Origin: a virus
UHGV virus genome: UHGV-0097969
Direction: 5' to 3' (one strand)
Length of the DNA: 45,847 nucleotides
Part shown: piece after piece, positions 3,857-45,847 of the stretch
How positions within the stretch are numbered: the first letter of the stretch is position 1
Layout: each line of letters opens with the position of its first letter
Made by a program: the position numbers and the translations under genes
The notes under the pieces: generated by a model
The model's input: only the letters and a program-made list of their open reading frames with translations
Database searches by the model: none
What the model was told of the DNA's origin: nothing

Positions 3857-4473
3857 GCCTGAGCCTCCGTTGTCGGAGCGTATTCCCCCTGAGCTGTGTG
3901 ATGGTGGCCTTTAGATTTAATCCCATCAACATCTATATCACCACCAACAACCTTAACATCCCCAGAAATTGTAGCTGCAACACCTCCAGCAGAAGATCCT
4001 TTCATTCCACCTTTGAAGGTTAGTAATCCTTCAACTGTAGCATTTCCGGTAATGATGGTTTCTGGAGCATCAATAGTTACGGTTCCTGTAGCCTTAACGG
4101 TTACATCTCCGACAGCATCAACAAGGAGTAAATTAGATTCTCTGTCTACCTCAATACGAGTTCCGTTATTAAATCTAATGACGCGTTTATTAACCGTATT
4201 AGATGGTGGCTTCTGTGTTTCATCATAAAAACTACCAAGAATAAAACCTTGTTGCGGCCCTGCGGGATGAAAGATACACAAAACTTGCTCACCAATATCT
4301 GGCATCCAGTAATCAGCATTCTTATCCGTATTTTTCACAATAACTGATAACTTTGCCGAAGTGACGTTATCCTGATCATCGAAAGTAACTCTTGCTGTAA
4401 CATCACCATCATCAATATCAGAAACAACGCCAACTCTTATAGTCTGACGTAATAATGTTTCTAAATCATTCAT
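3853..4473 (-). CDS. baseplate assembly protein V (central spike)
   Basis: 206 aa; N-terminal OB-fold-like region and Gly-rich C-terminal beta-helix-like tail; position after gpD-like gene. Confidence 0.65.
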   Translation of the reverse strand: MNDLETLLRQTIRVGVVSDIDDGDVTARVTFDDQDNVTSAKLSVIVKNTDKNADYWMPDIGEQVLCIFHPAGPQQGFILGSFYDETQKPPSNTVNKRVIRFNNGTRIEVDRESNLLLVDAVGDVTVKATGTVTIDAPETIITGNATVEGLLTFKGGMKGSSAGGVAATISGDVKVVGGDIDVDGIKSKGHHHTAQGEYAPTTEAQA

Positions 4474-9453: not shown

Positions 9454-10917
9454 TTATTCAGAAAACAAGTTCAGCAGATAATCAGGATTATATTCCATGA
9501 CGAACTCAATATCTCTGGCAGGTGAGAATGGTGTCATTTTTACATGGAATTTAACAATCCCGTCCATTAATGACGTAATCGTGTTTTCAGACTGATCAAA
9601 GGTAACAACACCACCTGCAATATCCTGATTACCTGTGAGGCCGTTAAGCCAAATATTCGCACTTGTAACAATCGATTCAATTAATCGACGGTTTGCAGGA
9701 TTGTCTATTTTTGACCAATGCGAAAGAATTAACGTATTACCCACCCAGTTAAACATACGTCGGCAAACACGAAATGCGTCTTTGGGGTCTGTAGATGTTG
9801 GATAAATAGCATTACGGTTTCCCCATGATTTCCAACCATCAAAATTAAGGCTTGTTACAATCCCCTGTCCATTTAAGTAGTTTGCCTGGCTAATGTTAAG
9901 CCATACTTCACTGCCATCTTTACGTACAGCACCGTCCATCTGTAGTTTTATATTTGACGGAGAACGTGATGGAATATCACCATACTGACTATCCAGCAAG
10001 CATGTTGCGGCCGCTAAATGGGTTGAGTGATGGTAAATATTGTCACCAAGTTTCACCATCGGCCAGCACACTGTCTGGTTAGCGGCCATGTGATTATTGT
10101 TCTGTTTCCATTCAGGAACAGCCGAGTAATCACTGATAGTAGATTTATCGGTCGGCGCATCCGTTATAGCTTCTGCTTTGAACAATTCACTAATCAGCGC
10201 GGCTTTAGCCGCCATTAGCTGACCAACTTCACTATCAGAACTAAATCCAGGTGCAATCACTTGTCCAGGAACTAACTTGAAGCGGGGATACACATCTGAC
10301 AGTAACTCAAGCCCTGTATTGGCTTTAGTGTTGGAATCCACACCACCGATAATGTCATTTTTAGTTACGGCACCGGGATCAAGATGCGTATAACTAACCT
10401 TAAGAGTAGCGTCTTTTTCGGTAATTTTTCCTCCGCTAATAGCTGTAATGACCGTATAGCCATTATCATCCAGCGCCAGCACATAATCGGTATCAAGCGT
10501 TAACCCAGGCGAATCACCATCTGCTTTTTTCACAACAACAGATTTATATAAGACACCATCGTTAGAGAGCGTACCTTTCCCGCCAGAAAGTTTTACTAAC
10601 TCATCAGTAACGTCTTTCTTATGCTTTGCTGGATCAAGCACATTGATAAATACAACTGGCGCAACACCATATATTCCAAATGCGACTTTAATTACTTCGC
10701 TTAAAGTATATTTCTCGAAGTTTGTGCTATATCCTATTTTAGATACGGCCTCTGCGTATGTATAAGCAATGATAGGTTTATTTACCGCTGAGGCTGGATC
10801 TTCTAACTGATTAACAGGAGCCGTACCAAATGCGACAATCAACCCAGCACTAACTTGCACTGGAGGAGTTATAGATGTAGCCAGTTCAGATATATAAATA
10901 CCGTGGCGATATCCCAT
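9454..10917 (-). CDS. contractile tail sheath protein
   Basis: 487 aa; N-terminus MGYRHGIYISELATS... typical of Mu/P2-type sheaths. Confidence 0.8.
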   Translation of the reverse strand: MGYRHGIYISELATSITPPVQVSAGLIVAFGTAPVNQLEDPASAVNKPIIAYTYAEAVSKIGYSTNFEKYTLSEVIKVAFGIYGVAPVVFINVLDPAKHKKDVTDELVKLSGGKGTLSNDGVLYKSVVVKKADGDSPGLTLDTDYVLALDDNGYTVITAISGGKITEKDATLKVSYTHLDPGAVTKNDIIGGVDSNTKANTGLELLSDVYPRFKLVPGQVIAPGFSSDSEVGQLMAAKAALISELFKAEAITDAPTDKSTISDYSAVPEWKQNNNHMAANQTVCWPMVKLGDNIYHHSTHLAAATCLLDSQYGDIPSRSPSNIKLQMDGAVRKDGSEVWLNISQANYLNGQGIVTSLNFDGWKSWGNRNAIYPTSTDPKDAFRVCRRMFNWVGNTLILSHWSKIDNPANRRLIESIVTSANIWLNGLTGNQDIAGGVVTFDQSENTITSLMDGIVKFHVKMTPFSPARDIEFVMEYNPDYLLNLFSE

Positions 10918-26104: not shown

Positions 26105-26273
26105 ATATTTGATTTGTTTGTCTGGTGTGGCGCCGCGTACGAAAATCCCAGCCAATAAATTCAGGATTTTTGGACGCGGCGGCATATCAGACAAACATGG
26201 TTGATGCGTGCGCTCATGAGAAAAGCGCATAGAATGTTGTAACTATATATTTATATAATTATAGAAATATATA

Positions 26274-26483
26274 TTACTTTTGGCAGTTGATTTCCCATGC
26301 CCTGTTATGAGCCAGAATATCTTTCTTTGTCTGGCGGTCCATAACATCGATGTCGTGATCAGTAAGGTAGATTGGCTTTACCCAATCACAGGCGGTATCA
26401 ACCACCACCGGGACGCTTCCACGACTCCCGCAGCTCGCGATCAACATCGTCATCAGCCATATGGTTAACACTCTGCTGTACAT
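26274..26483 (-). CDS. o-spanin (Rz1-like lipoprotein), overlapped frame
   Basis: Lipobox-like LIASC after a hydrophobic N-terminus; overlaps the 3' end of the i-spanin-like ORF in another frame. Confidence 0.45.
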   Translation of the reverse strand: MYSRVLTIWLMTMLIASCGSRGSVPVVVDTACDWVKPIYLTDHDIDVMDRQTKKDILAHNRAWEINCQK

Positions 26484-31666: not shown

Positions 31667-31768
31667 TCTCCGGTTTAACCAGGGCGGGTATCGCTCGGTT
31701 TCGGGTATAACCTTAGGAAATTTTTTCCCACCTGTAAAGCACTTTTTATATAAATCTATAATTATATA
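31667..31768 (-). promoter_or_regulatory. conserved promoter/leader cassette, copy b (P_R'-like position after the Q-like gene)
   Basis: Near-identical to copies a and c; lies about 60 bp downstream of the Q-like stop. Confidence 0.5.
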
Positions 31769-31830
31769 TTTATAGATTTTCCGATATTCCCGATGCCTAC
31801 AAATCACCAAAACAGCTCAAAATGACACTT

Positions 31831-35500: not shown

Positions 35501-35606
35501 TTATATGATTATAGATTTATATAATTATATAAAACACTTTTCATCAGCCAAAAAGTTGGTTATGCTTACCTCGTTCTATAAATATAGATTTATAGAATTA
35601 TATAAC
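35501..35606. repeat. AT-rich octamer arrays upstream of parA (candidate centromere/operator)
   Basis: ttatatga ttatagat ttatataa ttatataa at 35501-35532 and tatagatttatagaattatataa at 35580-35606; similar array at 36281-36314. Confidence 0.45.
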
Positions 35607-36282: not shown

Positions 36283-36325
36283 TATATAATTATAGTTTTA
36301 TAGATTTATATAAGAGGGGATACAC

Positions 36326-41760: not shown

Positions 41761-41876
41761 CGGGTTATCTCCGGTTTAACCAGAGCGGGTATCGCTCGGT
41801 TTCGGGTATAACCTTAGGAAATTTTTTCCCACCTGTAAAGCACTTTTTATATAAATCTATAATTATATAATTCTAT
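41761..41876 (-). promoter_or_regulatory. conserved promoter/leader cassette, copy c
   Basis: Near-identical to copies a and b (one G/A difference in the leader). Confidence 0.5.
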
Positions 41877-41923: not shown

Positions 41924-42223
41924 TCAGATGTTAAACGCTATTCGTTTTCCTGTGGGAAGCTCAACATCCAGGCTTAATTTGCCTCCCATAGCTTCAACGT
42001 AACGCTTTAATGTCGCCAGCTTTAAATCATTTCCGCGCTGCTCCAGCTTTGTTACTGCTGGCTGGCTTATACCCATCGCCTCAGCAACCTGTTTTTGTGA
42101 TAACTGGAGTTCTTCACGCATCATCTGCAAGCCGACCTCAAGAATCATCTCATCTGCCATTTCTTTAATTCGCGCCTGGCTTTCCGGTGAACGGCTGGCA
42201 ATCGCCTCATCTAATGTTCTCAT
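41924..42223 (-). CDS. higA: HTH antitoxin, HigA-like
   Basis: 99 aa, XRE-type HTH ...LSQKQVAEAMGISQPAVTKLEQ...; start overlaps toxin stop (ATGA). Confidence 0.65.
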   Translation of the reverse strand: MRTLDEAIASRSPESQARIKEMADEMILEVGLQMMREELQLSQKQVAEAMGISQPAVTKLEQRGNDLKLATLKRYVEAMGGKLSLDVELPTGKRIAFNI

Positions 42224-42576
42224 TACTTGCTCTCCAGTGTGTTCAGATGTGCTGCAAACTCATCCTCAGCTATACGCACCAGTTTTTCATAAAACCGCTT
42301 ATCGTTACTTTTGTCTCCTGCACAAAGAACGATGGCCCGGCGAATCGGATCGAACGCATAAAAGGCTCTTATCGGACGGCCAAAAAACTGAACGCGAAGC
42401 TCTTTCATATTTTTGTACCGAGAACCTTTTACGGTATCGGCATATGGCCTAGGTAACTCAGGTCCGTAAACCTGTAGCTTTTTCAAATCAGCCAAAACCT
42501 TTTCCTGAAGAGCGTCTTCTTGCTCATTTAGCCAGTCGTCAAATCGCTGGCTAAAAAGTACCGTCCACATGCTCAA
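42223..42576 (-). CDS. higB: RelE/HigB-like toxin (Gp49-like)
   Basis: ...RVQFFGRPIRAFYAFDPIRRAIVLCAGDKSNDKRFYEKL... resembles the Gp49/HigB family; toxin-first order; track start is TTG, likely ATG at 42570. Confidence 0.65.
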   Translation of the reverse strand: MSMWTVLFSQRFDDWLNEQEDALQEKVLADLKKLQVYGPELPRPYADTVKGSRYKNMKELRVQFFGRPIRAFYAFDPIRRAIVLCAGDKSNDKRFYEKLVRIAEDEFAAHLNTLESK

Positions 42577-42814: not shown

Positions 42815-43105
42815 CTATTTTTGTGACTTTACTCCTGGCATATGGACTTCCCAGCGCCGAATCCCCATAGCTGCGCAAAAATCAGCCACATAATTCAATC
42901 CCGCCCATTCGCGGATACCACCACGGGCTTTTTCAATGAAAACGGCAATCCCTTTTTTATTGAGAGCAAAAAGCCGCCAGCTTTTTGTCACTTCGTCCTG
43001 GGTAGCCACAACACAAGTGAAAGCGCCCATGCGATACAGGTCCAAGAACTCTTTGCGTGTTTTGCGTACAAGTTCCATAACAAACCTCATATTTGCATGT
43101 TTCAA
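42815..43105 (-). CDS. hypothetical protein
   Basis: 96-aa ORF coupled to the upstream HTH-like gene. Confidence 0.4.
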   Translation of the reverse strand: MKHANMRFVMELVRKTRKEFLDLYRMGAFTCVVATQDEVTKSWRLFALNKKGIAVFIEKARGGIREWAGLNYVADFCAAMGIRRWEVHMPGVKSQK

Positions 43106-43401
43106 ACATCTGTTTTGTCATCAATGAAGATTAACCCTAACCCAGCGAAGTAACACAGCAGCGCCCAGGCTGCATACGGAATGCTGGATCTGGATGTGGA
43201 CTCCTTTAACATCTGCCAGTTGCGAACATTGCGACTATCTTTTAAGCCAAGTTTTTTGGCCAACTGCGAGCCGCTCATTCCGGTCAGGCCAATGACTGCC
43301 CGAACTTCTCCACATGTAGGAGATTCCCATTCATCCGCTTTTTTTAAACAAGCCGGATTCAACATTTTTAAAACAGTATCTTTATCCATAACCATCTCCA
43401 T
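43102..43401 (-). CDS. HTH-like protein with C-terminal hydrophobic segment
   Basis: ...VIGLTGMSGSQLAKKLGLKDSRNVRNWQ... then IPYAAWALLCYFAGLGLIFI. Confidence 0.4.
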   Translation of the reverse strand: MEMVMDKDTVLKMLNPACLKKADEWESPTCGEVRAVIGLTGMSGSQLAKKLGLKDSRNVRNWQMLKESTSRSSIPYAAWALLCYFAGLGLIFIDDKTDV

Positions 43402-43636
43402 TTATTACATCTACGATGGTAGGAAATCTTTTCCTATGTGGCAATAGAAATTTACCACATTTCGTATAAGACAAGTTTTCTATACCTAATAGGAAATCAT
43501 GATTCTTACGTTTTATCGCGTTCTGATGGCTACTGTGTGCGTATTTATCGACGTTTATTGATAAGGCTCGCCCCTTCCTCCTGCAAAGCCTGGCCGTAGG
43601 CCTTATTTCGGCCTTATATAAATTGATTTTGTATAG

Positions 43637-43748
43637 TTCGAAACGCGCCGTTTCGAAAAGGATGATCAGGCTGCTCCATGCCTCCGGCAAGTGCCGGAGG
43701 AGGTATATTTGAGCGTAGCGACTCGAACCGGCGCGAGCTTTAGCTCGC
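43637..43748. repeat. cluster of three perfect palindromes in the AT-rich region downstream of repA (candidate origin)
   Basis: TTCGAAACG-cgc-CGTTTCGAA (43637-43657), CCTCCGGCA-ag-TGCCGGAGG (43681-43700), GCGAGCT-tt-AGCTCGC (43733-43748). Confidence 0.4.
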
Positions 43749-44032
43749 TGCAAGGGCGAACATATTCACAGGCAAAGCCTGCGTAAGTTAAATAAAGAAA
43801 GTCTTAATAAAAGAAAGTGATTTTGCATTTATTTGTTTAGTGCATCTATTATAAAAAACCATTTGCATATACATATCAAAACTGTGGACAACTTAATTAG
43901 CCGATGCCTGTAAAGGCGATATTTACGCTGTGTTCAGGTTTAGAGAAAATTAATTTAGCTTGTTTTTTGAACAGATATTTTATTGCGACGTAGATAATCC
44001 TCCGGTAAAACCGGATTCATCATTCAGGTGGG

Positions 44033-44881
44033 TTAATGTTGGAGTGATTTCCAGGTCTTTCTTAGCCTGTTATAACGCTGCTCAACGAGGGAGCGTAAAT
44101 ATGCAAGGTCAGCTCCAGGATACATGCCATCAGCAAATTCCTGGCTAACCTCTCTAGTGATTTGATGACGAAGTTCGGCCTCTCCCTTTTCCCGAACAAG
44201 ACGCGCAGCTCTCTCCGCTGCTTTCTGTTTTGCCTTTATCTCTCTGGCCGTCTTCCTCTGACGCCATACATTCTCCATCTGCTCCTGAATAACAATACGC
44301 TTATAATCAGCCTCCGTTATCGCTTTTTTAAGCCGTTCGCTATTCTTCGCATTGAAGTAATTAAGTTTCTGGCTAACCGCACGTCTCCATGCTTGTTCAG
44401 TAATACCAACGGTTTCCAGCAGTTGATCACGAATCTCTATTTTCGCTGGCCAATACTGTTTATTCACCCGATCCCAGCGACGTTCATAATCAATAAAACC
44501 TAACGCTTTCAGTTGCGACAACGCCCTTGTACAGCGCGTTATAGACTTGTTCCCAGCTTCGGATACGGTAGACAGGCCGCAAAAATCAGCCAACGCCTCA
44601 GCACTAGCCAGAACCCGCTTAGAAATGATGTTTACATGGTGCAAAATCGCAGCGATCACAGCATTAATCGCCCGACGACGATGCTCGTTTATCCGGCGCT
44701 TCCGCTCTGACGGTTGATTAACGTAGAACGCAACCTCACACGTAAGATCACGCCCATTAATGCGCTGTAAAGCATCAGATAACACCAGCGGCAGCTTGTG
44801 CGTATGGTGCTTTGGAGGCTGGAACTCCGGCGACAAATTACAAACGTAAGCTGAACGTAGAGACGGCATTGGTCTATCCAT
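44033..44881 (-). CDS. repA: replication initiator RepA, IncFII RepA1-like
   Basis: ...CGLSTVSEAGNKSITRCTRALSQLKALGFIDYERRWD... resembles R100/R1 RepA1; basic C-terminus; in-frame upstream ATG at 45013 would add 44 aa. Confidence 0.75.
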   Translation of the reverse strand: MDRPMPSLRSAYVCNLSPEFQPPKHHTHKLPLVLSDALQRINGRDLTCEVAFYVNQPSERKRRINEHRRRAINAVIAAILHHVNIISKRVLASAEALADFCGLSTVSEAGNKSITRCTRALSQLKALGFIDYERRWDRVNKQYWPAKIEIRDQLLETVGITEQAWRRAVSQKLNYFNAKNSERLKKAITEADYKRIVIQEQMENVWRQRKTAREIKAKQKAAERAARLVREKGEAELRHQITREVSQEFADGMYPGADLAYLRSLVEQRYNRLRKTWKSLQH

Positions 44882-44925
44882 ATGTTCGCTCTTGCGTCCA
44901 CGGAAAACCAACGTATAATGGGAGT

Positions 44926-45006
44926 TGTCGAGGCGCCCATGGATTGTTGTTGTTGGTTTTCCGTGGATGTCGCAAGAAGCCCGCAGATTTATCTGCGGGC
45001 TTTTTG
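44926..45006 (+). ncRNA. CopA-like antisense RNA in the repA leader
   Basis: Promoter TTGCGT-N16-TATAAT (44892-44919) and terminator GCCCGCAGA-ttta-TCTGCGGGC plus T5 (44979-45005), opposite to repA. Confidence 0.45.
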
Positions 45007-45194
45007 TTTCCATATCTGGTCACTTTCCAACCAGACACCCACAATCATAACCACGTTACGTGGTTTTAAGAGAACTCTACCACAACACTTTCGGTCATGC
45101 ACGAAGTCTCTCACTGATCGAACGATAATCCACCAGTAAAAGGATCTAAATTGGATCTCGTTTTGCGAGCATCATACTACTGGCCTAACTCCAG

Positions 45195-45749
45195 TCAATG
45201 ATTCCCAGCCGGAAACCTGCGGTAAAGCGTGGATAAGGTAACATCGAAGATAATCGCTATCTGCTTACGTGAAACACCATTCGCAATAAGCCTTCCGATC
45301 TGTTCCCATTGCTCTGGTGCCAATTTTGAGCGGCGTCCTCCTATCCTGCCGTTAGCCCTTGCCACCGCCAATCCTGCACGCGTTCTTTCAATCATATTTT
45401 CCCGCTCCATCTCTGCGACTGCACTCAGCATCGTGTAGGCAAAGCGGCCAATTGAAGTGCTAATTTTTATCCCTTCCGTAATCGAAATAAACTCAATGTT
45501 GTTTGATAAAAAATAATTAAGTAAATCAACAAGATGAATCAGAGAGCGCCCCATTCGGTCCAGCTTCCAGACAATAACCGTATCGCCCGGCCGTAACACC
45601 TTCAGTAGCTTATCAAGTCCTGGTCGTTTTGATTTAGCACCGGATATTTTATCTTCAAAAATCCGGTCACATCCTGAACTCCTGAGCGCCTCCAGTTGTA
45701 ATTCCAAATTCTGGTCAAAAGTTGACACCCTCGCATAACCATATTGCAT
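45195..45749 (-). CDS. site-specific DNA invertase, Gin/Pin/Cin/Hin family serine recombinase
   Basis: MQYGYARVSTFDQNLELQLEAL...VWKLDRMGRS... catalytic-Ser N-terminus and C-terminal HTH; 184 aa. Confidence 0.9.
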   Translation of the reverse strand: MQYGYARVSTFDQNLELQLEALRSSGCDRIFEDKISGAKSKRPGLDKLLKVLRPGDTVIVWKLDRMGRSLIHLVDLLNYFLSNNIEFISITEGIKISTSIGRFAYTMLSAVAEMERENMIERTRAGLAVARANGRIGGRRSKLAPEQWEQIGRLIANGVSRKQIAIIFDVTLSTLYRRFPAGNH

Positions 45750-45813
45750 ACTTTCTAAACCGCGATTGTTGCTAAAAGCGGGAAAAAATATCGTTCAGAC
45801 GACACAGAGGCAA

Positions 45814-45839
45814 TTCGCAAAAACCTCGGTTTGCAGGAA
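45814..45839. other. gix/cix-like invertase crossover site B
   Basis: Reverse complement TTCCTGCAAACC GA GGTTTTTGCGAA; inverted partner of site A; 65 bp upstream of the invertase start. Confidence 0.6.
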
Positions 45840-45847
45840 ACGGTAAA

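Follow-up and report, generated by a model that had tools for sequence, protein, structure and literature searches.

A probable IncFII-type replication origin on an E. coli phage-plasmid and the strand-specific hairpin element that flanks it

In the plasmids R1 and R100 (NR1), the vegetative origin, oriR, lies downstream of an IncFII-family repA gene and on the same strand. A hairpin and a spacer follow the repA stop codon. On its repA side, the origin begins with a DnaA box, which is succeeded after a few bases by a (C/A)TGCAA motif and then by an AT-rich core. In R100, a short hairpin is found beyond the core and then a second one, here called stem-loop II, which carries an AGGT tail. The R1 replication fork moves away from repA, and the G site of R1/R100 is said to lie ~380 to 400 bp beyond oriR, reportedly in the work of Masai and Arai 1989, Bernander et al. 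1992, and Tanaka et al. 1994. The G sites of these plasmids and of phages G4, alpha3, and St-1 consist of several stem-loops followed on their 3' side by a CTG on the single-stranded template. A published description of R1 oriR (PMC5883639) gives it a length of 188 bp and a DnaA box next to which, on the downstream side, RepA is bound, and states that theta replication proceeds in one direction. In G sites, primase starts at the T of the CTG that lies 3' of the stem-loops (PMC6783573), and mini-hairpin apexes of the GCGNNAGC/GCGNAGC class are known at such priming sites, in hairpin I of G4, St-1, and alpha3 (PMC13037366).

The region from 43579 to 44032 of the window (the whole 45,847-nucleotide stretch of DNA that was analyzed) is laid out in much the same way. 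Since repA is on the minus strand, this region lies downstream of the gene, which is where the preliminary description had expected an IncFII origin, and it is collinear with the region downstream of R100 repA in which oriR was experimentally defined. Read from repA, the order is post-stop hairpin, DnaA box, TGCA repeats, AT-rich core, variable hairpin, and GC-rich hairpin cluster (Table 1). A nine-sequence alignment sets the region alongside those of R100, Yersinia pCD, IncFII(K), and Serratia, Pantoea, and Salmonella plasmids, with several invariant columns. Given this homology and collinearity, 43579-44032 very probably serves a ~48-kb E. coli phage-plasmid, which carries an IncFII-type replicon, as its vegetative (plasmid-state) origin, although origin activity as such is predicted from comparison of sequences. 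The full explanation that we favor, which joins the IncFII-type origin to the hairpin cluster and to a priming model, is probable, albeit less firmly so. The origin is ordinary, in that the work refines a well-known system and does not change the view of how such origins work.

Table 1. Features of the predicted origin region and of the adjoining repA gene, in window coordinates
Feature	Position	Strand	Basis or remark
Motif CCTGCAAAGCC, G-type primer start-like	43580-43590	plus	CTG at 43581-43583; left edge of conserved cassette
Small hairpin GGCC-GTA-GGCC	43592-43602	plus	Stem invariant in alignment A5; GGCC-GAA-GGCC in relatives
Palindrome 1, TTCGAAACG-cgc-CGTTTCGAA	43637-43657	plus	9-bp stem, 3-nt loop; one subfamily only
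Palindrome 2 (stem-loop II), CCTCCGGCA-ag-TGCCGGAGG	43681-43700	plus	9-bp arms; element to 43706 with tail AGGTAT
Mini-hairpin motif GCGTAGC (GCGNAGC type)	43713-43719	plus	Spacer between stem-loops II and I
Core block, CGAACCGGCG-stem-loop I-CTG(43748-43750)CAAGGGCG	43724-43758	plus	Conserved; CTG overlaps last stem pair
Palindrome 3 (stem-loop I), GCGAGCT-tt-AGCTCGC	43733-43748	plus	7-bp arms
Short hairpin CAGGC-aaa-GCCTG	43769-43781		Between block and AT-rich core; position kept, sequence variable among plasmids
AT-rich core, presumed unwinding and RepA-binding region	43782-43882		GC minimum; TGCA motifs
DnaA box TTGTCCACA	43883-43891	minus	One mismatch from consensus TTATCCACA
Spacer between repA and origin (CIS-like)	43892-44032	minus	Hairpin TCCGG-taaaa-CCGGA at 44001-44015, just past repA stop codon
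repA, IncFII RepA family initiator	44033-45013	minus	Pfam PF02387 (IncFII_repA), E = 1.3e-43, residues 53-319
Stem-loop plus terminator-like hairpin, candidate copy-control antisense RNA	44896-45009	plus, opposite repA leader	Arms, T-run

In the alignment, the features are collinear with those of the IncFII oriR; pairwise BLAST against R100 returns nothing significant for the window's origin. Direct BLAST of the origin flank against R100 and G4 likewise gives only short, chance-level matches. The link between the window and R100 is strong when it is made via the intermediates IncFII(K), pCD, and ColIb-P9. R100 RepA itself differs, matching the window's RepA over only 97 residues at 40% identity, and the spacer between the stop codon and the DnaA box measures 141 nt in the window compared to 177 nt in R100. 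R100 also lacks a block of ~50 bp (CGAACCGG...stem-loop I...CTGCAAGGGCGG) that is present in the window; conversely, two Ter-like sites and a complete distal G-type module are found in R100 but not in the window. The placement of R100 stem-loop II opposite the family's stem-loop I in alignment A1 proved to be a misalignment and was corrected by means of the covariance model.

ColIb-P9 (IncI1), IncFII(K), and the Yersinia pCD/pYV-type plasmids share with the window a stem-loop II followed by a stem-loop I-CTGCAAG block, located directly past the AT-rich core and on the opposite strand from rep, and in pCD and IncFII(K) the flanks of the block are identical to those of the window. Unlike the window, these plasmids carry a Ter-like GAATGTTGTAACTA beside stem-loop II and a full distal module ~370 to 380 nt further on. 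In the window, palindrome 1 takes the place of the Ter-like site, and all that is kept of the distal module is its CCTGCAAAGCC end, at 144 nt from the block. Comparison with relatives delimits the conserved cassette to 43579-43893, and its left edge thus falls 58 bp to the left of the point at which the preliminary description had begun the candidate origin.

RefSeq names the repA product "plasmid replication initiator RepA." The true start codon of the gene may be M45 (44879-44881); a Salmonella RepA homologue starts at residue 49 of the window's repA ORF. From what is known of R1 and R100, the spacer between repA and the DnaA box would play the part of CIS, and the position of its post-stop hairpin is kept in the aligned R100, pCD, IncFII(K), and Salmonella sequences. 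On the other side of the gene, the candidate antisense RNA has 16-bp perfect arms (44897-44912 and 44952-44967), then a hairpin (44973-45006) and a T-run. Rfam gave no CopA match at 44896-45009, where only sub-threshold matches of a generic terminator type were returned. A single-protein scan of viral contigs with L009 RepA produced no match.

The DnaA-box-like 9-mer that had been reported on the minus strand is present, and it shares its alignment column with the DnaA box of R100 and with seven other IncFII-type regions; the sequence at this column is TTATCCACA in R100, pCD, IncFII(K), and Serratia. Taken alone, such a 9-mer would be weak evidence, because the window contains 12 of these sites and ~0.1 is expected per 394-bp stretch. 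The box also marks the right edge of the DNA that is conserved with the Salmonella relatives. A GCAA adjoining it is invariant in nine replicons, and the bases flanking this GCAA vary with the RepA subfamily.

The AT-rich tract beyond the palindromes, likewise noted previously, has a GC content of 0.338 over 43750-44030 (0.445 for the window) and ranks among the lowest 2.5% of 281-bp windows, while 43790-43880, at 0.209, is the lowest 90-bp stretch in the whole window. Three TGCA motifs lie here on the repA-sense strand (ATGCAAAT at 43862-43869, ATGCAC at 43841-43846, and ATGCAAAA at 43823-43830). Together with the GCAA beside the box, they are candidate sites for the RepA binding that, by analogy with R1 (PMC5883639), would take place in the core. 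Hairpins at the position equivalent to 43769-43781 read CTGTCC-tgt-GGACAG in R100, ACAGAC-ga-GTCTGT in Salmonella, and CCCAC-aac-GTGGG in Serratia. In a search of 43000-45847 for tandem direct repeats of the iteron type (~17 to 22 bp), no such family was found, only short direct matches in two or three copies.

The three perfect palindromes of the preliminary description, with arms of 9, 9, and 7 bp, are indeed there and span 112 bp. The whole window contains 64 perfect hairpins whose arms reach 7 bp or more, or ~1 per 716 bp, and a cluster of three within ~115 bp occurs in 0.1% of 2,000 dinucleotide-preserving shuffles of the intergenic stretch 43402-44032, in which RefSeq annotates no gene. 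The plus strand of 43630-43790 folds with a z score of -3.1, a fold that none of 200 shuffles equaled. An ORF that crosses the palindromes (43382-43753, 123 amino acids) was taken as spurious, having neither a Pfam match nor a RefSeq annotation. An Rfam scan of 43000-45847 (E ≤ 1) gave no match in the origin region.

Palindrome 1 is kept in three relatives (L002, L083, and L084) with a loop change of cgc to tgc. Four others (L023, L040, L048, and L054) have GCGAAAAG-cgc-CTTTTCGC at this site, with one compensatory pair change, and the equivalent hairpin of L055 has one mismatched pair. Most of the wider family lacks palindrome 1 and has a Tus Ter-like site, GAATGTTGTAACTA, on that side. The reading of the region as a candidate origin stands, supported by the collinearity and by the restriction of the module to plasmids, but with two refinements: the palindromes are not part of the RepA/DnaA portion, and a role as terminators only is not supported. 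They are neither iterons nor typical terminators but a flanking, strand-specific hairpin element on the side toward which IncFII replication proceeds.

Palindromes 2 and 3 are contained in a composite element that consists of stem-loop II, a spacer, and CGAACCGGCG-stem-loop I-CTGCAAGGGCG. The tail of stem-loop II is AGGTAT in the window and AG(C/G)TAC in the family consensus, and the mini-hairpin motif at 43713-43719 becomes GCGAAGC in L084. The block matches 2,559 PLSDB plasmids and 63 genome contigs from many Enterobacterales genera. The strand opposite the block carries a repA of the IncFII or IncI type in 52 of the 63 loci, in one orientation and with its 3' end 275 to 623 bp from the block. 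Relatives that were found by RepA alone also have the composite element. In the accessible literature, we found no paper describing this proximal block.

Both stems covary. In alignment A2 (65 sequences), 95% of the cells in the eight pairs of stem-loop II are paired and six of the pairs have changed on both sides, and stem-loop I is 100% paired, with all three of its varying pairs changed on both sides. Among 69 copies of stem-loop I, the inner stem is complementary in 68 and is formed by at least seven different arm triplets with their complements, and stem-loop II is found as 34 haplotypes. Overall, 97% of the cells were paired, relative to 35 to 59% in slid controls; changes on both sides accounted for 124 cells (35 expected), and 0 of 500 shuffles reached the score.

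The wobbles also favor one strand. Wobble cells comprised 39 G.T/T.G against 4 A.C/C.A pairs, these being counts of cells rather than of independent evolutionary events, and the ratio was 15 to 4 when distinct stem-loop II haplotypes were counted. In stem-loop II, the G.T wobbles occur on the plus strand only. Given this bias, the hairpin structure is selected on the window's plus strand.

The CTG that follows stem-loop I is invariant in the 65 sequences of alignment A2. Since the genome contig sample was gathered by a pattern with fixed block flanks and a spacer of N{8,11}, the invariance of the flanks in that sample arises by construction. Independent support for it comes from the loci retrieved by BLAST and by RepA and from ColIb-P9, which lies outside the training set and in which the covariance model finds the element with 33 bits (E = 5e-6). 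Even where a plasmid's RepA shares only 28 to 37% identity with that of the window, the block flanks are the same, whereas the motif on the DnaA box side varies with the RepA subfamily. That the flanks stay constant while RepA diverges suggests that a host factor recognizes them.

A CTG on the 3' side of stem-loops, together with CCTGCAAAGCC near the left edge of the cassette, suggests a priming signal for primase, and we give an even chance to the possibility that the hairpin element is such a G-site-like signal. As in the G sites, the CTG of the block comes 3' of stem-loops, here palindrome 1, stem-loop II, the mini-hairpin, and stem-loop I on the plus strand, which would be the leading-strand template if the fork leaves away from repA, as in R1. 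Mini-hairpin-type apexes are shared with G sites as well (PMC13037366): the GCGNNAGC/GCGNAGC class is found in 36 of 69 family copies of stem-loop I and, as GCGTAGC, in the window's spacer, and the apex of the hairpin at 43592-43602 has the C-G-N-A-G form of this class. In the window itself, stem-loop I has the apex GCTTTAGC, which does not conform to the canonical mini-hairpin. With respect to the start context CTGCAA(A/G)G, the block sequence CTGCAAGGGCG shares 7 nt (CTGCAAG) with CTGCAAAGCC of G4 and resembles CTGCTAAGCC of alpha3. The G4 record annotates the primer at 3970-3997, and 43580-43590 matches the decamer CTGCAAAGCC at this annotated start in 10 of 10 positions.

The element nonetheless differs from the phage G sites in several ways. 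The hairpins of G4 and alpha3 have no detectable homology to those of the window, the CTG of the block shares a base with the final pair of stem-loop I, compared to a distance of 3 nt past hairpin I in G4 and alpha3, and CTGCAAG is followed by GGCGG in the block, not by CCAAA. By BLAST and covariance model, neither the G4 and alpha3 oric sequences nor the R100 distal module is significantly similar to the window beyond the short CTGCAA(A/G)G, and the covariance model of the element finds no match in phage origins or the distal module.

In an alignment of 15 distal modules, CC-CTG-C(A/T)AAGCC ends the module of R100, ColIb-P9, and 13 other loci. A CAGTACCGGC at ~10432 of L005 had been considered as the R100 G-site start and was dropped, since the conserved CC-CTG-C(A/T)AAGCC lies ~35 nt further on. 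The CCTGCAAAGCC motif, which corresponds to this module end, is invariant in the window and in L084, L083, and L002, and the DNA to its left is unrelated. Elsewhere, the motif occurs on the same strand as the block in 22 loci and on the opposite strand in 0, and in 14 of the 22 it is 368 to 385 nt from the block. No stable hairpins were found 5' of the 43580 motif in the window (folding z = +1.2).

R100 replicates even though it lacks stem-loop I and the CTG block, so the block is not essential to the IncFII replicon type. Many plasmids have both the proximal block and a distal G-type module; the two may accordingly do different jobs, and the idea that they are mutually exclusive substitutes was rejected. 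The window, which is without the hairpins of the distal module, needs some start site.

If the element does act in priming, initiation might proceed as follows. RepA, made in cis, would bind beside the DnaA box together with DnaA, and the AT-rich core would open. DnaB would then be loaded and would unwind the DNA away from repA, to lower coordinates, exposing the plus strand, as leading-strand template, in single-stranded form. Palindrome 1, stem-loop II, the GCGTAGC mini-hairpin, and stem-loop I would form on this strand, free of SSB, and DnaG would begin the leading-strand primer at a CTG, likeliest opposite T43749, just past the 3' end of stem-loop I, with the G4-like CCTGCAAAGCC at 43580-43590 as the second candidate start. 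Synthesis would be unidirectional, away from repA. The presumed movement of the fork to lower coordinates fits the GC skew, which is negative on the plus strand over all 45.8 kb, and the orientation of the genes (31 of 37 long ORFs on the minus strand), although these two indications are confounded with each other.

A broader proposal is more tentative. The composite element (stem-loop II, then CGAACCGGCG-stem-loop I-CTGCAAGGGCGG, abutting the unwinding region) could conceivably be a widespread, unannotated origin-proximal primase start of the IncFII/IncI superfamily, present in >2,500 sequenced plasmids. It might have been overlooked because R100 has a ~50-bp deletion of the block and uses a distal G site ~370 to 380 bp away, and it might provide the main leading-strand start of compact replicons like that of this phage-plasmid.

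The covariation and strand asymmetry establish a structure selected on the plus strand but do not identify the protein that reads it, and the cluster might be a single-strand signal of another kind, i.e., a PriA-dependent (phiX174-type) primosome assembly site, a positioner for DnaB/DnaC loading, or a limit to SSB spreading, with no direct recognition by DnaG. The lack of homology to known G sites past the 7-nt motif is compatible with this explanation, and the separate distal G-type module on the same strand in many plasmids leaves room for a different proximal role. To our knowledge, however, primosome assembly sites have no conserved flanking sequence, and the window, being without the distal hairpins, would still need a start site. 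In addition, the invariant CTG immediately 3' of stem-loop I, with ~12 conserved nucleotides after it, fits the layout of a primase start (PMC6783573), and we consider a signal of another kind unlikely.

We regard it as quite improbable that the palindromes are duplex sites for a dimeric protein, whether a host or phage regulator or RepA itself, which would use them as an outer origin site in partnership with the CTGCAAGGG-like motif next to the DnaA box. The R100-type box-side motif CTGCAAGGGA (repA strand) and the block sequence CTGCAAGGGCG (other strand) do form an inverted repeat flanking the core, and GCAA is invariant at the proximal site. Yet the stems vary freely while staying complementary, as the arm triplets of stem-loop I and the haplotypes of stem-loop II attest, which is unlike the behavior of protein-contacted bases, and tolerance of G.T wobbles on one strand only is unexpected for duplex recognition. 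Moreover, the block remains constant in plasmids with highly diverged RepA proteins, while the proximal motif changes along with them.

The alternative that the preliminary description had named against itself, namely, that the palindromes are only terminators, is not supported. In this reading, they would act as transcription terminators or insulators against read-through from repA or from the left into neighboring genes, with no role in replication. Transcription of repA does head toward the palindromes, and palindrome 2 was flagged in a plus-strand scan for terminator-like hairpins, with a weak tail (AGGTATATTT). There is no T-run at palindromes 1 and 3 on either strand, however, nor at any of the three on the repA-sense strand, and no plus-strand gene or promoter-like site lies to the left. 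The G.T positions would become A.C mismatches on a repA-sense RNA, and the position and orientation of the element beside repA are kept in plasmids with unrelated downstream genes, so that we deem termination alone very unlikely. It is least probable of all that the region is a decayed relic of an IncFII replicon in a phage-plasmid maintained from another origin: MOB-suite assigns no replicon type to pHN68-3, and a phage of ~48 kb is also expected to have a lytic replication module, but repA is intact, the cassette is 96 to 100% conserved in ~60 to 70 independent plasmids with all origin features retained, and there is no other plasmid-type initiator in the annotated stretch examined.

These results provide a concrete origin annotation for the ~48-kb phage-plasmid family, in which the region is blank in current annotation. 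The hairpin-CTG block is a short, highly specific marker, and since it always lies a few hundred base pairs from rep in a fixed orientation, it could allow origins of the IncFII and IncI types to be located and oriented automatically across thousands of plasmids. Should the block indeed be a primase start, the textbook case of R1/R100, with its leading-strand start ~380 bp from oriR, would be the exception and not the rule.

The origin module was found in 73 places in 71 complete E. coli genomes, all of them on plasmids and none chromosomal. Near-identical DNA occurs in isolated Yersinia phages of ~49 kb. Yersinia phage HQ103, a published plasmid-like pseudolysogen, was considered as a member of the family and rejected, as its qPCR primers are absent from the window. 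The 71 E. coli genomes that carry the phage-plasmid family represent ~1.3% of the 5,426 complete genomes and include that of the reference strain ATCC 25922.

The three perfect palindromes, the AT-rich tract and the DnaA box-like 9-mer named in the preliminary description are all present (see the table), and since repA lies on the minus strand, the entire flagged region (43637-44030) is downstream of that gene, as had been proposed. When the intergenic region was shuffled with its dinucleotides preserved, 0.1% of the shuffles contained a comparable palindrome cluster. The GC content was 0.338 across 43750-44030, relative to 0.445 for the whole window, and no other 90-bp stretch of the window is as AT-rich as the core of the tract (43790-43880; GC content, 0.209). 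RefSeq annotates no genes in 43402-44032, and a 123-codon ORF spanning the palindromes had no family match.

Features in and around the candidate origin, and copies of a 24-mer repeated elsewhere in the window
Feature	Position	Strand	Remarks
CCTGCAAAGCC	43580-43590	+	10/10 with the G4 decamer
Palindrome 1	43637-43657		perfect, 9-bp arms
Palindrome 2 (stem-loop II)	43681-43700		perfect, 9-bp arms
GCGTAGC mini-hairpin motif	43713-43719	+
Palindrome 3 (stem-loop I)	43733-43748		perfect, 7-bp arms
DnaA-like 9-mer, TTGTCCACA	43883-43891	minus
repA	44033-45013	minus	Pfam IncFII_repA, E = 1e-43
Copies of TTATATAAATCTATAATTATATAA	25109-25132, 26251-26274, 31746-31769, 35501-35524, 35574-35597, 36290-36313, 41847-41870

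When the intergenic region was used in distant BLAST searches, Salmonella phage-plasmid relatives aligned to 43579-43893 only, and short, strong matches to 43708-43761 were found in Pantoea and Serratia IncFII plasmids, with an IncFII-type repA ~290-360 bp upstream in each case. An alignment of nine such downstream regions (the window, Salmonella, Pantoea, Serratia, Y. pestis pCD, Klebsiella IncFII(K), two further plasmids, and R100) revealed one common order of features: a hairpin directly past the repA stop codon, a spacer, a DnaA box (reading GTTGTCCACA in the window and GTTATCCACA in R100, pCD, IncFII(K), and Serratia), then (C/A)TGCAA, AT-rich DNA, a short hairpin whose sequence varies, and a GC-rich block. 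The R1 oriR comprises 188 bp with a DnaA box, binds RepA directly downstream of the box, and supports unidirectional theta replication (PMC5883639). Given this anatomy and the shared feature order, the flagged region is very probably an IncFII-type origin in the place predicted for it, collinear with R100 and seven other regions and with its DnaA box, AT-rich stretch, and hairpins in the same order as in R100. The origin is ordinary in kind and has so far gone unannotated in the phage-plasmid family of the window.

The palindromes belong to an element that extends well beyond this family. In PLSDB, 2559 plasmids matched a 96-nt query around palindrome 3, mostly over 43724-43758 (stem-loop I, its conserved flanks, and a CTG; here, the block), from hosts that include Klebsiella, Escherichia, Enterobacter, Yersinia, Citrobacter, and Serratia; in all five examples examined, an IncFII-type repA lay 270-370 bp upstream of the match, with the relative orientation unchanged. 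Scanning one genome per species with a pattern that fixed the block flanks returned 63 loci from many Enterobacterales genera. An IncFII- or IncI-type repA was on the opposite strand in 52 of these, with 275-623 bp between its 3' end and the block, and several of the other 11 loci end at contig boundaries. Stem-loop II lies ~25-45 nt 5' of stem-loop I and varies in sequence; it is followed by a conserved AG(C/G)TAC. Palindrome 1 has a narrower spread: it is kept in the closest relatives, four more distant loci have a hairpin at its site that differs by one compensatory pair change, and in a fifth, L055, one pair of the hairpin is mismatched. The palindrome 1 side is taken up by a Tus Ter-like site, GAATGTTGTAACTA, in most of the family.

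Pairing is conserved where sequence is not. The inner 8-11 nt of stem-loop I, which the pattern left unconstrained, have complementary arms in 68/69 copies, with pairs that differ by locus (GAC/GTC, ACC/GGT, GCC/GGC, AAC/GTT, ACG/CGT, AGC/GCT, and GGC/GCC). In a 65-sequence alignment of the element, 97% of cells were paired (100% in stem-loop I; 95% in stem-loop II, with both-side changes at six pairs), compared with 35-59% when the partner was slid by 1-3 columns. Both-side changes numbered 124 cells versus 35 in shuffles, and none of 500 shuffles attained the observed values. Wobble cells were one-sided, with 39 G.T/T.G versus 4 A.C/C.A (15 versus 4 as distinct stem-loop II haplotypes), although neither these nor the covarying cells are independent evolutionary events. 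This excess indicates that the hairpins are selected as the single-stranded form of the window + strand, opposite in sense to repA; for the palindromes, the best reading is a single-strand hairpin signal that flanks the origin.

As to mechanism, the best reading is a primase start signal, to which we give about an even chance. In the presence of SSB, E. coli primase begins synthesis at the complementary-strand origin of G4 from the T of a CTG 3' of three stem-loops (PMC6783573). The primer annotated at 3970-3997 in the G4 record starts at the CTG of ...GTCCCTACTGCAAAGCC, and the arrangement in phage alpha3 is the same, with CTCCTGCTAAGCC. The window + strand is laid out likewise, with palindrome 1, stem-loop II, GCGTAGC, stem-loop I, CTG (43748-43750), and CAAGGGCG in succession. 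This CTG is invariant in 65/65 aligned sequences, some of which were collected by means other than the pattern; in the pattern-scan sample, flank invariance is in part built in by the search. Hairpin I of G4, St-1, and alpha3 has mini-hairpin apexes of the GCGNNAGC/GCGNAGC class (PMC13037366); by our own count, a CG-N(N)-AG apex is present in 36/69 stem-loop I copies of the family, and the Serratia copy contains GCGTTAGC, the octamer given for St-1 and alpha3 (PMC13037366). The likeness to known G sites (G4-type primase starts) is nevertheless limited to a 7-10-nt motif and general architecture, and the block may already have been described, as one of the conserved blocks known from plasmid G sites.

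R1 replicates away from repA. If the fork left the window origin in this direction, the + strand would be the leading-strand template, and a primer begun at T43749 would grow away from repA. The GC skew of the + strand, negative across all 45.8 kb, and the location of 31/37 long ORFs on the minus strand both fit such a fork, yet they are mutually confounded.

The main rival reading, a possible but less probable one, is an assembly site of the PriA type or some other signal in single-stranded DNA. Transcription terminators, the refuting option raised in the preliminary description, fare worse: palindrome 2 alone has a T-run, a weak one on the + strand, but palindromes 1 and 3 lack one on either strand, the DNA to the left contains no + strand gene or promoter-like site, and the wobble positions would be mismatches in repA-sense RNA. 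Protein sites in duplex DNA are disfavored by the free compensatory variation of the stems and would not show the strand bias of the wobbles. No iterons were found in 43000-45847.

There is also a second G-type motif. R100 (L005 10395-10530), ColIb-P9 (L011 2206-2341), and 13 further family loci (e.g., L010, L022, L028, and L032) share a distal module that ends in CC-CTG-C(A/T)AAGCC(A)AAC, nearly identical to the primer-start contexts of G4 (CTGCAAAGCCAAAAGG) and alpha3 (CTGCTAAGCCCAAAAAGG), with conserved hairpins ATGCCGC...GCGGCAT and CCGGC-gta-GCCGG 5' of its CTG. In the 22 loci where the end motif was found, it was always on this strand, never on the opposite one. Masai and Arai in 1989, Bernander et al. 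in 1992, and Tanaka et al. in 1994 reportedly placed the R1/R100 G site ~380-400 bp beyond oriR, a location that the position of the end motif, 368-385 nt from the block in 14 loci, would fit. Since many plasmids carry both block and distal module, their roles may differ. The hairpins of the distal module are absent from the window (z = +1.2 for folding 5' of the 43580 motif). However, CCTGCAAAGCC marks the very point at which conservation with three diverged relatives starts and is followed by a small hairpin, GGCC-GTA-GGCC; judged by this conservation, the conserved cassette spans this motif to the DnaA box, and the CTG at 43748-43750 and that of CCTGCAAAGCC are both candidate start sites.

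The element also recurs where it was not sought by pattern. A covariance model of the family found it at the origin edge of IncI1 ColIb-P9, which was absent from the training set (33 bits, E = 5e-6), and relatives retrieved through RepA alone have it at the expected place. ColIb-P9, IncFII(K), and pCD have the stem-loop I/CTGCAAGGGCGG block, as does the window. In contrast, R100 (L005 10015-10060, compared with L008 and ColIb-P9) keeps stem-loop II and its AGGT tail but is missing the ~50-bp block; the model found the stem-loop II half alone, because R100 has 3 nt in place of the 33 model positions for the stem-loop I/CTG block. Since R100 replicates without it, the block is dispensable for this type of replicon. 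R100 also has two opposed Ter-like cores, at 10079 and 10217, which lie between oriR and the distal module.

The window RepA is 86% identical to that of Salmonella but 37% to Kp AR_0129, 30% to Serratia, 30% to IncFII(K), and 28% to pCD, and CGAACCGGCGCG...CGCTGCAAGGGCG is unchanged in all of these, which were retrieved by BLAST rather than by pattern. The motif beside the DnaA box, in contrast, varies by RepA subfamily (CTGCAAGGGA, ATGCAAATGG, or ATGCAAGCGG). Given that the block is constant across diverged RepAs while this motif tracks them, the element is likely read by a host factor rather than by RepA. Since the Pfam match begins at residue 53 of the 326-aa repA ORF and the Salmonella homologue at residue 49, the annotated start is probably too far upstream, and Met45 (44879-44881) is likelier. 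Opposite the repA leader (44879-45013, minus), a perfect stem with 16-bp arms and a terminator-like hairpin with a T-run (44896-45009, +) form the arrangement expected for a CopA/Inc-type antisense copy-control RNA, a candidate that no Rfam family matched.

E. coli plasmid pHN68-3 (48.7 kb, circular, nonmobilizable) is 100% identical to the window, and ~60 more plasmids (46-52 kb), among them one of E. coli ATCC 25922, are 96-99% identical to it over the repA region. Since neighboring genes encode phage tail, tail-fiber, and baseplate proteins and a DNA invertase, and the isolated Yersinia phages vB_YpM_39, _41, and _44 (~49 kb) carry near-identical DNA, the element carrying the window is a phage-plasmid. 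The region occurs in 71/5426 complete E. coli genomes, at 73 places, all plasmid and none chromosomal. The invertase (45195-45749, minus) is a Hin/Cin-like serine enzyme with Resolvase and HTH_7 domains; beyond 45750 in the full plasmid, it adjoins oppositely oriented tail-fiber and tail-fiber-assembly genes, an arrangement suggestive of a host-range switch that works by inversion. A Gp49/RelE-ParE-type toxin gene (42223-42576, minus) followed by an HTH antitoxin-like gene (41924-42223, minus) is a putative HigB/HigA-like addiction pair near the replicon.

An intergenic site ~17.5 kb from the origin, TAGAATGTTGTAACTATA (26229-26246, +), fully matches the Tus-binding Ter consensus GNRNGTTGTAAYKA, with its GTTGTAAC on the same strand as in the Ter-like sites beside stem-loop II in most related plasmids; by the Ter polarity we assume, it would pass a fork leaving the origin and stop forks coming the other way. 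One copy of TTATATAAATCTATAATTATATAA, a 24-bp AT-rich, partly palindromic sequence, adjoins this site. The seven copies have 0-3 mismatches, with zero expected from shuffles, and look like putative operator or promoter-associated sites of the phage-plasmid.
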